From Pirellulales bacterium (GTDB lineage Bacteria; Planctomycetota; Planctomycetia; Pirellulales; PALSA-1355), in the NCBI GenBank assembly GCA_963733035.1, contig CAVTBU010000010.1:96001-160000 (forward strand): a stretch of DNA of 64,000 nucleotides, in the 5' to 3' direction. Positions 12,001 through 18,000 of this stretch are shown here, piece after piece (within the stretch, counting starts at the first letter, position 1; each line of letters begins with the position of its first letter). The position numbers were made by a program.

Positions 12001-15000
12001 GTATATGCCTATCGCAGCCTCGTGCGCGAGTCTGCGCGGGCGTGCCGAAGAACTGCCCATGGCCGGAGCCTTGGCACGCGGCGTGAGCGATCTGCGGGTG
12101 ATTGTGGGCGAGGTTCGCAGCGCGCGCAACGTGTTGAGCCCACAGGGACGAATGATCCTGCCTTTGGAAAGGGACGTGCTGCTCAGTCAATTCAATGGCG
12201 GCATGGATCAGGTGCGTAGCACCCTGCAGGAATATCGCCTGCAATTGATTGAGTTGGCCGCTGAAAATCCGCGCGGTTCCGATATCAACGATAGCAGCGC
12301 CGAATGGGAGACCGTTCACAAGATCGAACGCTCGCTCGAGCGAATTGCTGATGCCTCTTTTGACACCGATTGGCCGACCGATGAGGCGAAGATCGACACC
12401 ATCGGCATGGAACTCGACAATCTGCAGGAGCTAACGTGGATCCTGCCGAGCTATCTGCACGAGCGAATTCACGGCTTTGCCGACGAAGTAAAAGGGCACT
12501 ACCGCACGCTGATCGGACTAAATTGGATCACCACGGTGCTGGCCGCGCTGCTGATGTTTCTGGTGATGCGGCTGTTCTATAGCTGGGTTTTTCGCCCGCT
12601 GCAGGTGCTAGTGATGGGAGCCCGCCGTGTGGCGGCCGGCGAGTTTGGCTACCGAATTGCCTTGGACAGACGCGACGAAATTGGCGAATTGGCCGATGCC
12701 ATGAACGACACGATCGCGCGGTTCGAAGCGATTCGCGACGACCTTGACCGGCAGGTTCGCGAGCGCACCAAGCAGGTCGTGCGTAGCGAGCAATTGGCCA
12801 GCGTCGGCTTTCTGGCCGCGGGCGTGGCACACGAGATCAACAATCCCTTGCAGTCGATCGCCTTGTGCGGCGAGTCGCTGGAAAGCCGCGTTGAGGAGGT
12901 GCTCGAAGCGGCACCGACCATCGCCGACTCCGATCGCGAGGTGATCCGCAGCTACGTGAAAATGATTCAGGACGAGGCGTTCCGCTGTAAAGGCATCACC
13001 GAGCGGTTGCTCGACTTTTCGCGGATGGGAGACGTAACGCGTCAGACGACCGACTTGCGCGAGCTGATCGGCGGTGTGATCGACATGGTCGGCCACTTGG
13101 GCCGCTATCAAGACAAGCGTCTCGACCTGGTGCCCGGCGAGGCGGTCGTGGCGCCGGTCAACCCGCAAGAACTCAAGCAAGTGGTGCTTAATCTGATTAC
13201 CAACGGACTCGACAGCCTGTCGCCCGGCGGCGTGCTGTCGATCGAACTGCGCAAATCCAACGACATGGCCGAGATCGTCTTTACCGACGACGGTTGCGGC
13301 ATGACCGAGGAAGTTCTCAAGCACTTGTTCGAGCCGTTCTTTACCCGCCGACGTAGCGGGCAGGGGACCGGACTGGGGCTTTCCATTACCTATCGCATCG
13401 TCGCCGACCACGGCGGACAGATTGACGTGCATAGCGACGGCCCGGGCCGCGGAGCGCGTTTTCGAGTATTGCTGCCCTTGGCCGAGAAGCAGAAGGAGAG
13501 AGATCATCGCTACCAAGCCGCATAATCGCTTGAAACTGTTGTTCGCCGACGACGAGCGCTCGCTGCAAGAGTTGATGAAGATCGAGCTGCCGCGGATGGG
13601 GCACGACGTCACGGTCTGTCCCGACGGATTGACCGCCGTGGCTGCCCTGGAACGCAACAGTTACGACTGCATTCTGGTCGACCTTGACATGCCCGGGCTG
13701 ACCGGCATCGAAGTGATTGCCAAGGCCAAGGAGTACTCGCCTCATACGGATGCCGTGGTGTTGACCGGCAAGTCGTCGATGGAAACCGCCATCGCCGCTT
13801 TACGTCATGGCGCGTTTGACTATCTGACCAAACCCTGCAAGCTCGTTGAGTTGCAGTCGCTGCTCAACCGCGTCTCCGAGAAGCGTGAACTGACGAACAA
13901 GTACCTGGCCATCAAGCGGCAACTCGAACGCGTCGAGGGCAAGAGCCAGCTGATCGGCGAGAGCCCCGCCATGGACCGCGTGCGGACGCTGATCGCCAAG
14001 GTGGCGCCCACCAATAGCACGGCACTCATCCTCGGCGAAACCGGCACCGGCAAGGAACTGGTGGCTCGGGCGCTGCACGATCAGAGCCTGCGGGCCGATA
14101 TGCCGTTCGTGGCCATCAACTGCGGCGCGCTGCCCGAGAGCCTGATCGAAAGCGAATTGTTCGGTCATCGTCGCGGCAGCTTTACCGGCGCCGACGAACA
14201 CCGCGTGGGTTTGTTCGAAGTGGCCAACGGCGGAACGCTGTTTCTCGATGAAATTGGCGAGCTGCCCAAGGCCATGCAAGCCAAGCTGCTGCGGGTGCTC
14301 GAAAGCGGCGAAATCCGTCGCGTGGGCGAGAACGAATCGTTTACGATCGACGTGCGGGTGGTCTGCGCCACGCACCGGCACCTGGAACAGATGGTCGACG
14401 AAGGAGAATTTCGCGAAGACCTGATGTTTCGGATCAACACGTTTGAAATTCACTTGCCTCCGCTGCGCGAGAGGACCGACGACATCGAACTGCTGGCCCG
14501 GCACCTGGTGCAGCGATTCCGCCGCGGCGCCCGACCCGACGATGAGTTGTTCACGCCGGAGGCGATTCGCCTGCTGACCGAGCACAGCTGGCCAGGCAAC
14601 GTCCGCGAGCTGGCCAACGTCATCGAACATGCGACGATTCTCTGTGAATCGGGACCGATTTCGGTGGAGCACCTGCCGCAGCGATTCGAAAACCGCCGGA
14701 TGCGAACGAGCACGGCGGGCGGGTCCGCGCCGTTGAAAGCAGTTGGTTCGGGTTCGCAGACCCTGCGCGAAATCGAAATGCAGGTTATCTACCAGACACT
14801 CGAGCGGCTGGGAGGCAATAAGCCGAAGGCCGCCGAAGAGCTCGGCATCAGCCTGAAGACGCTCTACAACAAGCTGAACCAATCGAGCGCGGCGTTGGAG
14901 CGTTCGGCATAAGCGCCACGGTGCGATTGCCAGGTGATTGCCGGAGTGATCGCGTGTTCCGCGGCCATTGCTCACACGGCGCTGCGTGATCCCGGCGGAT

Positions 15001-18000
15001 TATTCCACCTGCCGCACGACGCCAACGACAACGCCGAGGATTTTGGCGTGCTTGACGTAGATGGGTTTCATCGTGGCGTTGGCGGGCTCGAGGCGGATGC
15101 GATTCTTTTCCAGGTAAAATCGTTTCAACGTGGCCTCGCCTTCGTCGGTTTGCACGACCGCGATTTGACCGTCGCGAGCGGTGCGTTGCTTGCGAACGAC
15201 CACGAAGTCGCCGTCGGCAATTTGGGCGTCGATCATCGACTCGCCCGACACCTCCAGTACGAACAAGTTCTTGTGATCGAACATCGCGCCGAAGTCGATC
15301 CGCTCGTCCTGTTCGATGGCTTCGTGCAGCACGCCGGCGGCAATGCGGCCGGCTAGCGGCAGACCACGGTCTTCGATCGACTCGGCAGCCAGTTGAATGG
15401 CCCGCGACATATTCGGCTCGCGTGTGATCAGCCCCTTCTTTTCCAGGGCCTTCAGATGGCACATCACGCCGTTTGGCGAGCTGATGCGAAAATAATCGCC
15501 GATCTCGCGGACCGTCGGGCCGTAACCGCGATTTCGAATCTTGTCGCGAATGAATTCGTAAACGTCCTTCTGTCGCTCGGTCAATTGGTCCGTTACGGAC
15601 ATGATCCAGGGCTTCCTGTGGGGGTTGGCGGAATGTCACCGCGACTTCACTATAATATACGCCTGTACATAATCAATAGCATCTGTACACCATCGGCGGA
15701 AAATCCCCGATTTCTTGAGCCGTTCACCTAGCCGTCGCGACCGGAAAAGGCCGATACGTACCCATGCGCGGCCATCGATTTGCATTGACCCGACCTGGGT
15801 CTTGCGAAAGAATGCTTTGTAGACGTATCTGCCACGCTGGCTGGGGAATATGGTTCATTCGCTGCTATCCCTGATGCTGTTGGCAACCCAGGTCCTTTCC
15901 TGGAATGCCGCGCCGCTGTTCCTGTGCCTGGACGCGGATGGCTCGGTGTGCATCGACTTCGGACCGGACAGTTGCGGCTGCTGTCACCAGGACGCTGGCA
16001 CCGCCGATGATGGCCATGAGCATGCCGGGTGCGGCCACGCCGAACGCGACCGCGCCACGTGCGACTCGCGGACTTCGCAGGCGACTTCGGTTCCTTGCGG
16101 CTGCGAGCACGTGCAGCTTTCCGATCAGCAGACGGCCACGCTCGACCGGGCTCCGCTGGATGGCGCGAGCGGGCCGCTGGGTCAGCCGGTGGCCATCCAC
16201 TCTTGCTCGAACCCGCAGGTGCTCGGCCGGGTCGGCGCTGCCACCGGTGCTGCCCATCGATTGCCGGCTTCAACCGACGCGATCATGCTGCGCGCGGCAT
16301 CGTGCTGCGCTGTTGAATTTGCGCCCCCCGGGTGCGGATTTATCTTGCGTAGCCTGAGCGTTCTTTCATGGACGTCCGGTTTCGCGACGCACTCTCTGGC
16401 TTCGCGTCGATCACGGTTTTGGTTCTGTTTCACGTACCGAATTGCGCGCCGCCTGGTGGCAGCGCGTTCTTCAGGAGCATCCCGATGTCCATCGCCTCTC
16501 CTACCCGCTCAGACAGCCCTGCACCGCGCATTGAGCCGCGCACGATCGCGCCATCGCGGCCGCCAACTGCTGGCACTCGTGACGGGCAACCTGCCGAGCA
16601 TCCTGGTATTCGCGCTGCTTGGCGGAGTGCTGTTGTTGGGGCACGAGACCGGCTGGAAGCTACCGTCGCTTTCGGCCTTGTCCGGTAGCTCGTCGGCCGC
16701 CAGCGATGATTGGTGCGCCGAGCATCTCGTGCCCGAGGCAAGCTGCGTCGAGTGTCGCGACGGACTGCTTCCCAAGTTGCCTTCGTTCGGCTTCTGCCGC
16801 ACGCATGGGGTGGCAGAGTGCGTAATCTGTCATCCGGAACTGGCCCAGGTGCGCGGCGAGCCGCGGTTGCCGGCCTACGACACCGCGGCCGCGCTGGCGG
16901 TGATGGATCGTCCGACGAACAACAGCCGCAATATGCTCCACGAGCGGCTGGTGCAATTTGCCTCGGCCGAGAGCGCAGAAGGCTGGCGTGATGGTGAATG
17001 TGGTGCAGGAAGAGCCCATGAGCGACATCGTGAAGGCCAACGGCGAGATCCAATTCGATCCCACACGCGTGGCGCATCTCTCGCCGCGCGCCGGGAACGG
17101 TGGCACAGGTATTCAAGATCGTGGGCGACGACGTGCACGCCGGCGACGTATTGGCGCTGGTCGACGTGGCTGCTGTCGGTCAGGCCAAAGCCGACTTGAT
17201 CCAGGCGATTGTCGCCAGGCGTCTTCGCGCAACGAACCTTGAACGCGTGAAAGCCGCGGGCGTTGGCGTGGCTGGAATTCGAATCACGGAGGCGGAGGCG
17301 GCGTTGGAAGAGGCCGACGTGCGACTGATTTCCGCTCGGCAGGCCCTGGTAAACCTGGGGTTGGAAGTACCCGAAGAGCTTGGCGACGCCGATCCGAGAC
17401 AAGTCGCCGAGGACCTGCGGTTCTTGGGCATTCCTACCGAGATTGTTGCCATGCTACCGGCCGGCACACGGTCGGCCAATCTGTATGCCGTGCGAGCACC
17501 GTACGACGGCGTGGTGGTTTCCTCCGACAGCGTGCTGGGCGAGGTGGTTAGCCAAGGCGACGTGCTTTATACGGTGGCCGATCCGCGGCGGATGTGGCTA
17601 ACGCTGGCCGTGCCGCAAGAAGATGCTCGCTATGTCAAACCGGGGCTGGCCGTGAAGTTCAGCACGGACGAGGCGGCTCAAGAGGTTAACGGAAGCATCT
17701 CCTGGGTCAGCACCACGATCGACCAACGGACGCGAACCTTGCAGGCTCGAGTCGTACTCGATAACTCCAGCGGTCGGCTCAAGGATAAGACTTTCGGTAC
17801 CGGCCGGATTGTGCTCCGCGAAGAGCCGCGGGCGATTGTCGTGCCGCGCGAGGCGGTGCAGGCCACGGCCGACGCGACGTTCGTGTTCGTGCGAGACAAG
17901 AACTACCTGACCAAGGGCGCCCCGAAGGTATTCCACGTGCGTCAGGTGCGCACCGGAGCAGCGGACGACGCGCACGTCGAGTTGTTAGCCGGGGTGCTGC

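Follow-up and report, generated by a model that had tools for sequence, protein, structure and literature searches.

What reads the palindrome that lies ahead of lexA in this Pirellulales genome? The window, by which we mean the whole 64,000-nucleotide stretch that was analysed, corresponds to C10:96001-160000, giving a coordinate offset of 96000 and not the 64000 used in the survey's finding. Upstream of its lexA gene stands a match to TGWAC-N4-GTWYA, which had been proposed as the SOS box of the order. Our comparisons make it very probable that this palindrome is the operator of the LexA dimer in Pirellulales, and more widely in Planctomycetia, governing a small damage regulon. Support comes from conservation across genomes, from the position of the site relative to promoters and from an intact LexA. 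The features at the locus, together with one unlinked gene discussed below, are collected in Table 1.

Table 1. Coordinates of the features (window positions unless a contig is named)
Feature	Position	Strand	Basis or remark
lexA, canonical SOS repressor, 200 aa	15000..15602	minus	winged-HTH domain and S24 peptidase domain
LexA recognition-helix motif SPNGVMCH (residues 42-49)	15456..15479	minus	conservation among LexA proteins
Main putative SOS box, 14-bp core	15656..15669	minus	exact TGWAC-N4-GTWYA match; 18-bp form 15654-15671
Probable lexA -35 hexamer TTGATT	15671..15676	minus	promoter scan
Probable lexA -10 hexamer TATAGT	15649..15654	minus	promoter scan
Upstream half-site TGTAC	15685..15689	minus	20 bp (about two helical turns) ahead of the main box
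XRE-family gene with a box in its own promoter	C6:474255-474749		divergent from a 135-aa gene

The lexA product passes the TIGR00498 equivalog test with 206 bits (cut-off 110.95) and contains PF01726 and PF00717; when aligned to the E. coli and T. maritima LexA structures, it retains the Ala-Gly cleavage site and the catalytic Ser/Lys dyad. Its recognition helix, SPNGV[MV]CH, recurs in 88/89 other LexA proteins of the order and 32/33 others of the class, and in none of the 54 from other classes. Proteins of this SPNGV type form one clade (support 100/98).

The box upstream of lexA is the best-scoring site in the genome (22.8), by a matrix built exclusively from other genomes. Earlier counts had placed a site within one mismatch ahead of 26 of 29 other lexA genes, and the pattern was reproduced on a new set of 89 of 114 other genomes having a lexA match: 71/89 promoters carry the exact box (0.1 in shuffles) and 84/89 a site with at most one mismatch (4.95 in shuffles), leaving 5/89 with none. 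In the cultured strain Bythopirellula polymerisocia, the lexA box scores 20.0. The same holds for recA, boxed in 26/30 other Pirellulales (0.9 in shuffles; previously 17 of 29), and for nrdJ, the B12-dependent ribonucleotide reductase gene, with 22/28 (1.7 in shuffles; previously 19 of 22 genomes); in all these counts related genomes are non-independent samples. In cross-validation, a matrix made from 80 sites of five other gene sets recovered 82/90 lexA and 28/30 recA promoters. The match at lexA is exact, but the first half of the proposed palindrome needs amending to TRWAC, as both G and A occur at its second position; the refined consensus is A-S-TRWAC-RNNY-GTWYA-S-T.

In weaker form the box extends across the class Planctomycetia. 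Scores of 12 or more are reached by 81/89 lexA promoters in the order, by 16/33 elsewhere in the class despite an identical helix, and by 7/54 in other classes, though the helices there differ. The range of the box may follow the SPNGV LexA clade, a correspondence that counts in favour, though about half of the class-level promoters fall below 12.

Abundance contributes nothing to this argument. In the window the loose pattern occurs 9 times, with 7.4 expected, and across 30 genomes it shows no excess over the reversed pattern either; the signal accordingly rests solely on position and conservation, and pattern counts were dropped as evidence. Non-coding DNA makes up 21% of the genome, yet it holds all 7 sites scoring at least 18. 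With the threshold set at 14, 14 real intergenic sites stand against a mean of 10.2 and a maximum of 18 for column-permuted matrices, so that sites scoring 12-16 in a lone genome are unreliable without conservation.

In addition to the main box, TGWAC occurs at offset -20 in 51 lexA promoters, as compared with 74 at the main position. The upstream TGTAC is possibly a weak second operator. As a full second operator it was rejected, since it is merely a half-site, with a poor palindrome score (median -8.5, n=81).

Conservation across genomes upholds a core regulon of lexA, recA, imuA-imuB-dnaE2, nrdJ, a radical SAM gene and mrfA, and each of the seven genome positions named in the survey does carry a site ahead of a gene of the stated type. 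In other Pirellulales the box is present at imuA in 22/23 once the search window is widened by 80 bp; narrower windows had given 11/23 and then 17/23, too low because the protein alignment overran the promoter. Seven loci were excluded here, six of them cross-hits to recA and the seventh a fragment. The box is found at mrfA in 8/8 and at the radical SAM gene, of PA0069 type, in 14/26, with shuffles close to zero. The prophage resolvase fared less well as a proposed member: just 1/6 close homologues reaches 12, with its site 399 bp upstream, and the gene is kept as a local, poorly conserved candidate and a weak member.

The box overlaps or abuts predicted promoters. At lexA, the 16-bp spacer of the predicted sigma-70 promoter contains the entire box; a TTGAC-like -35 occurs at the equivalent offset in most of 79 aligned relatives, and the -10 offset is that of the best -10 in 67/82 boxed lexA promoters. 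By predicted promoters, the box covers the -10 at imuA, the radical SAM gene and nrdJ, and the start site at recA, mrfA and a gene for an IrrE-like protein. This arrangement invites the explanation that the motif merely reflects the conservation of strong sigma-70 promoters, its right half and flank resembling a -10. Indeed, the best -10 of imuA begins within the right half in 11/17 promoters, and one site, at a long csrA paralogue, resembles a direct repeat plus a -10. The register between box and -10, however, differs among genes, which argues against a by-product of the promoter; just 24/5450 called genes score at least 12, and only 7/532 of those with a sigma-70-like promoter do so, as do 0/29 uvrB promoters and 0/46 promoters of other csrA paralogues. 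The worry, raised with the original finding, that half of the motif overlaps the -10 hexamer is answered by the lexA box, which lies wholly in the spacer, and by that of the IrrE-like gene, which mostly begins at or past the -10 end. We consider the by-product explanation very improbable.

The absence of the box from uvrA, uvrB and uvrC, as proposed earlier, stood for most of these genes. No uvrB promoter of 29 reaches 12, and 1450-bp windows give 1/29 (0.4 in shuffles); no site was found at single-length uvrA in two sets (0/20 each) or at uvrC (0/5). It failed for the double-length uvrA, whose site here scores 13.2. Four of 31 such genes score; three of the four come from the three genomes that represent this genus, and the gene is not an order-wide member. 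The largely unboxed uvr genes would also suit a LexA that binds the box but whose control has shrunk or become largely independent of damage, as reported for M. xanthus and some cyanobacteria. In M. xanthus, LexA has no more than 5 direct targets, and loss of lexA leaves SOS genes inducible (PMC9705874). The LexA studied here, by contrast, keeps its cleavage site and catalytic dyad, and the genes with conserved boxes belong to the classic damage response; we give this possibility as little credence as the promoter by-product.

Three further candidates had been missed earlier: the IrrE-like gene, the divergent pair of the XRE gene and a 135-aa gene, and one csrA paralogue. The IrrE-like gene, which encodes an M78 protein, is boxed in 17/19 genome loci and in 22/28 metagenomic loci, two of the 28 being duplicates and 12 of the original 40 having been excluded as 5'-truncated. 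Its product has a full-length IrrE fold (TM 0.70/0.71 to 8SLN, E 1.3e-8, model pLDDT 93) and matches ESM Atlas M78 clusters; M. tuberculosis PrpR equals IrrE by E-value as a fold match. The HExxH zinc motif is absent from all 38 sequences and is replaced by HExxE, with H89, E90 and E93 invariant. The XRE gene has a strong box in this genome and in 5/5 relatives. Its product contains an HTH, and the best fold match is DdrO, weak (TM 0.34/0.42) and from a low-confidence model (pTM 0.38). Adjoining XRE genes were sought at 40 metagenomic and 19 genome IrrE-like loci, and none was seen. One csrA paralogue is boxed in 8/10. The long csrA paralogue (C8:207453) has sites in 4/5 family relatives and 1/3 others, but its left half is part of a direct repeat of TTGTAA and its right half looks like a -10, and the site was set aside as doubtful for this reason.

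These genes raise the possibility that the DdrO-like XRE protein, not LexA, binds the palindrome until the IrrE-like protein frees it, lexA being one target among others. The strong box in the XRE gene's own promoter, the DdrO fold match and the presence of an IrrE-fold gene would fit, as would Deinococcus, where a palindrome ahead of recA, and another ahead of ddrO itself, is bound by DdrO (PMC5552922). Against this, the box appears to track the LexA clade and shares its register with the validated M. xanthus LexA box. Genomes in which no IrrE-like gene was found also keep it (lexA 8/10, recA 9/11), and the IrrE-like protein lacks HExxH. Furthermore, uvrA and uvrB both belong to the RDR regulon of Deinococcus (PMC5552922), whereas uvrB is unboxed in Pirellulales. 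We regard an XRE-bound palindrome as improbable, if somewhat less so than the two alternatives above.

The operator of LexA remains our preferred reading, and we infer binding, repression, cleavage and induction as follows. Bound LexA would block sigma-70 promoters by occupying the spacer (lexA), the -10 (imuA, the radical SAM gene, nrdJ) or the start site (recA, mrfA, the IrrE-like gene). Upon DNA damage, RecA-ssDNA would trigger LexA self-cleavage and release a small regulon. In it recA would serve recombination, imuA-imuB-dnaE2 mutagenic bypass, nrdJ the supply of dNTPs, and mrfA and the PA0069-type radical SAM gene the repair of cross-links or photoproducts. Second-tier regulators, namely the IrrE-fold protein, the XRE protein and one CsrA, would belong to it too. 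Excision repair would mostly lie outside it.

A more speculative extension, which we think unlikely but worth stating, is an IrrE/DdrO-type switch nested within the LexA regulon. Removal of LexA by DNA damage would induce both the IrrE-fold protein, with its altered HExxE metal site, and the unlinked XRE repressor; the former might bind or cleave the latter and so time a second wave of genes, with the LexA-controlled CsrA paralogue as a translational layer. A predicted complex of the two proteins scores 0.32 (best control 0.00), lending weak support to such binding. Such a switch would be the reverse of that in Deinococcus, where IrrE is constitutive and LexA-independent.

In the literature searched, we found no LexA box for Planctomycetota and no paper on LexA control of nrdJ; a Verrucomicrobia study (Erill et al. 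2016) lies outside that literature. One paper says of Planctomycetota LexA only that its motif is not that of E. coli (PMC3108266). A precise predicted box makes the SOS response of this little-studied group directly testable. It also places two regulator genes that were not expected there, one IrrE-like and one of XRE type, in the predicted regulon, and conserved control of nrdJ, the IrrE-fold protein, the XRE repressor and the CsrA paralogue would extend the known content of SOS regulons. The box shares T-G-T with E. coli and AC-N4-GT with Gram-positive and cyanobacterial boxes, and is a near-repeat of that of Myxococcus; these mixed likenesses make it a useful point on how LexA specificity changes.

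By sequence, the Pirellulales box is a variant of published LexA boxes and not a new type. The E. coli SOS box, CTG(TA)5CAG (PMC9578287), has its outer T-G-T-A ... T-A-C-A in register with it, but three bases from the centre Pirellulales has C/G, the T/A of E. coli occurring in 6-8%, and the outer C/G is relaxed. The two helices both start with SPN, and that of E. coli is SPNAAEEH where the Pirellulales one runs on as GVMCH. In the sister phylum Verrucomicrobia, Erill et al. (2016) reportedly derived the consensus TGTTC-N4-GAACA, said to be likewise a 14-bp palindrome with a TG start and a 4-bp spacer, but with T at position 4 instead of A.

The cyanobacterial box (AGTACWNWTGTACT or RGTACNNNDGTWCB) and the Gram-positive Cheo box (CGAACRNRYGTTYC) share the 14-bp palindrome, the inner WAC-N4-GTW core and the RNNY spacer bias (PMC3091678, PMC2248561), and in cyanobacteria, too, most uvr genes lack a box. 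The outer pair differs, being T...A in Pirellulales: the cyanobacterial A...T is present in 0-1% of sites and the Bacillus C...C in 1-5%, and neither the Firmicutes C...G nor the cyanobacterial A...T outer pair fits (0-5% of sites).

In Deinococcus, irrE is constitutive, unlike the IrrE-like gene with its putative LexA box, and mutating the HExxH His inactivates D. deserti IrrE (PMC5552922), whereas the Pirellulales protein has HExxE. The likeness lies in the unlinked IrrE-fold and XRE genes, both boxed here, the latter a weak DdrO match (PMC5552922, PMC6300522).

Closest is Myxococcus xanthus, whose gel-shifted box is CTRHAMRYBYGTTCAGS (PMC9705874, PMC2248561). Register and 4-bp spacer are common to both, the Pirellulales box fits the TRHAM-RYBY-GT core in identical register, and at 12/16 positions no fewer than 82% of the 104 non-lexA sites are compatible. 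The M. xanthus lexA probe (PMC9705874) has TTGACT directly 5' of the box, as do most Pirellulales lexA promoters, and uvrA is unboxed in M. xanthus as well. The Pirellulales box differs in being more symmetric, in having optional outer C and G (32% and 30% of the 104 sites) and in a right half of GTWYA, not the fixed GTTCA, the second T occurring in 32% of these sites; its predicted direct regulon is also larger and includes imuA and nrdJ.

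The lexA gene of this Pirellulales genome (G000) is assigned by its sequence to canonical LexA: the product scores 206 bits with profile TIGR00498, whose cut-off is 110.95, carries both Pfam domains, and has an Ala-Gly site and a Ser-Lys dyad that line up with those of solved LexA structures. Upstream, an exact TGWAC-N4-GTWYA site, the candidate LexA operator or box, sits between the -35 (TTGATT) and -10 (TATAGT) hexamers, 16 bp apart, of a predicted promoter. The survey's finding had been placed with a coordinate offset of 64000, which is wrong; as the window is G000:C10:96001-160000, the offset is 96000 and contig position 111654 is window position 15654. 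The loose pattern by itself is enriched neither in the window (9 matches, 7.4 expected) nor across 30 genomes relative to its reversed form. A convergent histidine kinase/sigma-54 activator pair flanks lexA on one side; on the other lies a divergent RND efflux region (CzcB-like) whose reading frames are broken.

Positions of the features discussed (C-numbers, contigs of G000; L-numbers, fetched loci)
Feature	Location	Strand	Remark
lexA	window 15602-15000	minus	
Box at lexA	window 15656-15669		exact pattern match
Neighbour regions of lexA	window 12005-14912; 17100-21253		
IrrE-like gene	C8:401517-402248		perfect box right after TAGAAT
XRE gene	C6:474255-474749		
Box between XRE and 135-aa genes	C6:474796		single strong box; TTGAC on each strand flanks it
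uvrA, split	C5:1849245-1855246		
uvrA, split	C5:1316454-1319211		
dnaE2, split	C5:291067-294164		
HtrA-like protease gene	L091:3196-4704		77 bp after recA
Small gene of no known family	L097 (C4:86886)		second-best site of G000 (22.5) at its start
Repeat at long csrA paralogue	L101 (C8:207262)		TTGTAA direct repeat upstream
Exact site near integrase and tRNA-Phe	L104 (C8:330613)		score 16.0
Palindrome at tRNA-Glu 3' end	L106:4052-4065 (C6:278051)		score 19.4; 78 bp after integrase
Second copy of that palindrome	L107 (C6:253355)		one change

Upstream regions of lexA were taken from 89 of the 114 other Pirellulales genomes with a lexA match; 71 of the 89 hold the exact site and 84 a site with at most one mismatch, against 0.1 and 4.95 in shuffles. 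Among 30 genomes kept as a fixed panel, the site precedes recA in 26 of 30 (0.9 expected) and, by the same type of pattern count, nrdJ in 22 of 28 (1.7 expected); because the genomes are related, such counts are not independent trials. An 18-bp symmetric scoring matrix, built from sites at lexA and recA in other genomes (28 of each) and used with a threshold of 12, was satisfied at nrdJ in 21 of 28, at imuA in 22 of 23 (narrower windows gave 11 and 17), at the PA0069-family radical SAM gene in 14 of 26, and at mrfA in all 8 of the 30 genomes in which the gene was found. The survey's placing of these six genes under the box is thus borne out in other genomes. Another matrix, whose training set was 80 sites at five gene sets other than lexA and recA, recovers 82 of 90 lexA and 28 of 30 recA promoters; scores of at least 12 occur at 77 of 79 named GTDB loci, and the consensus of 104 non-lexA sites is A-S-T-R-W-A-C-R-N-N-Y-G-T-W-Y-A-S-T. 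SplB-like genes are SOS members elsewhere, according to the accessible part of PMC3323433. Many recA promoters (L111-L140) have two boxes 15 bp apart, one on each side of the -10 hexamer, and a gene for an HtrA-like trypsin-PDZ protease follows recA and may be co-transcribed with it.

The position of the box relative to the best -10 hexamer differs from gene to gene: the hexamer begins one base past the box at lexA (67/82), ends on its first base at recA (18/27), begins 3 to 8 bases ahead of it at the IrrE-like gene (15/17) and overlaps its right half at imuA (11/17). Judged by the sites, their conservation and this geometry, the box is very probably a LexA operator: bound LexA would sterically block sigma-70 promoters, and RecA-stimulated cleavage of LexA would then free them. 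Within G000, a score of at least 12 is reached by 24 of 5450 genes from our own gene calling and by 7 of the 532 with a sigma-70-like promoter. All seven sites scoring at least 18 fall in non-coding DNA, which makes up 21% of the genome. As a counterweight, when the threshold is set at 14, the 14 intergenic matches have a similar number of counterparts with permuted matrices (mean 10.2, maximum 18); mid-scoring sites therefore count only where conserved.

The survey had excluded the uvr genes and included a prophage resolvase, and each statement stands in part. Scores of at least 12 were found at uvrB in 0/29, and the box at single-length uvrA in 0/20 in each of two sets and at uvrC in 0/5, whereas double-length uvrA is boxed in 4 of 31, among them G000, where the site lies 91 bp upstream and scores 13.2, and its two congeners: a genus-level exception. 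The resolvase site scores 13.2 in G000, but four of six close homologues have none; the other two score 11.6 and, at 399 bp, 17.3. In the assembly, dnaE2 and two uvrA genes each fall into more than one frame, probably through assembly indels, because double-length uvrA is a single open frame of some 2200-2600 aa in most relatives.

The regulon is unusual in composition, and several members were missing from the earlier list. One is the IrrE-like gene, found in 19 of 30 genomes searched and boxed in 17 of them; of 40 metagenomic loci 28 were usable, and 22 of these have the box (0.1 expected). Its predicted structure (pLDDT 93) matches IrrE/PprI over the full length (TM 0.70/0.71 to 8SLN), with PrpR matching at a similar E-value. 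The protein has an invariant HExxE in place of HExxH, and the His replaced here is indispensable to IrrE of D. deserti (PMC5552922, accessible part). Another is the pair formed by the XRE gene and a 135-aa gene, whose shared box recurs in 5/5 family relatives (scores 18.1-23.5). Confidence in the XRE model is low (pTM 0.38); its top fold match is DdrO at a TM of only 0.34/0.42. A predicted complex of the IrrE-like and XRE proteins scored 0.32 (best of three controls, 0.00), with at least 51% of contacts in agreement between runs and a partner pLDDT of at least 72, which is weak support. Of 157 solved complexes 116 also pass the mark, as do 2 of 215 mismatched pairs; but the band up to 0.60 holds only 18 of the 157 and both mismatches, so that a pass with so low a score will be wrong in most cases, except for a pair that was likely beforehand. 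In none of the loci examined do the IrrE-like and XRE genes lie side by side. That a switch of the IrrE/DdrO type is nested under LexA is a rather doubtful proposition. The main rival to LexA, namely that the XRE protein itself binds the box, is improbable; it is opposed by the box being kept in genomes in which no IrrE-like gene was detected (lexA 8/10, recA 9/11).

Also absent from that list were a 551-aa hypothetical gene (boxed in 3/5 relatives) and one short csrA paralogue, boxed in 8/10 other genomes and scoring 11.6 in G000; other csrA paralogues have the box in 0 of 46 loci scored, from the 104 csrA matches, for part of which loci were taken. G000 has 14 csrA paralogues, family relatives 10-17 and five other Pirellulales 5-9. 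The repeat upstream of the long paralogue is conserved and is probably another regulator's site. The small gene of no known family is boxed in 2/3 homologues. A perfect box-like palindrome abuts tRNA-Glu and recurs about 25 kb off in the apparent other att repeat; it precedes no gene, and none was called directly downstream of the site near tRNA-Phe.

How far does the box extend? The LexA helix SPNGV[MV]CH occurs in 88/89 of the order, 32/33 of the rest of the class (Planctomycetia) and 0/54 of other classes, and lexA boxes scoring at least 12 in 81/89, 16/33 and 7/54, respectively. In a 66-row tree, 29 SPNGV LexA proteins and one SPNAV variant form one clade (support 100/98). The box is therefore at least order-wide and probably extends class-wide in a more degenerate form. 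Second lexA copies in family f31 (L383, L385) have the helix changed to SPNGVVGH and no box upstream. In family f56 of another class (L355-L371, L389), the lexA promoters contain a palindrome of 18 bp, GGTGAACA-N2-TGTTCACC, near-perfect in 4/8 with variants in 3 more; the LexA recognition helix there is quite different, and the palindrome is a candidate second undescribed planctomycete LexA box. E. coli-like CTGT-N8-ACAG-type sites occur in lexA promoters of other classes of the phylum (L362 and L391, f61; L369, f92).

The box is apparently undescribed so far for the phylum: no planctomycete LexA box was found in the literature searched, which comprised main texts of freely available papers. 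The stem 'planctomyc' is absent from the accessible parts of PMC8565304, PMC7739468, PMC13148647, PMC2248561 and PMC9578287, and that of PMC3108266 says of planctomycete LexA only that the E. coli motif is not the one it uses. As far as the accessible parts of the sources go, the nearest comparison is the M. xanthus box, CTRHAMRYBYGTTCAGS (PMC9705874, PMC2248561), which has the same register; at 12 of 16 positions it is compatible with at least 82% of the sites, whereas its outer C/G and fixed second T are not matched. Cyanobacterial and Bacillus boxes agree with the Pirellulales box in the inner core and differ in the outer pair (PMC3091678, PMC2248561); the E. coli box has the outer TGTA in common with it and differs at the position three bases from the centre (PMC9578287).
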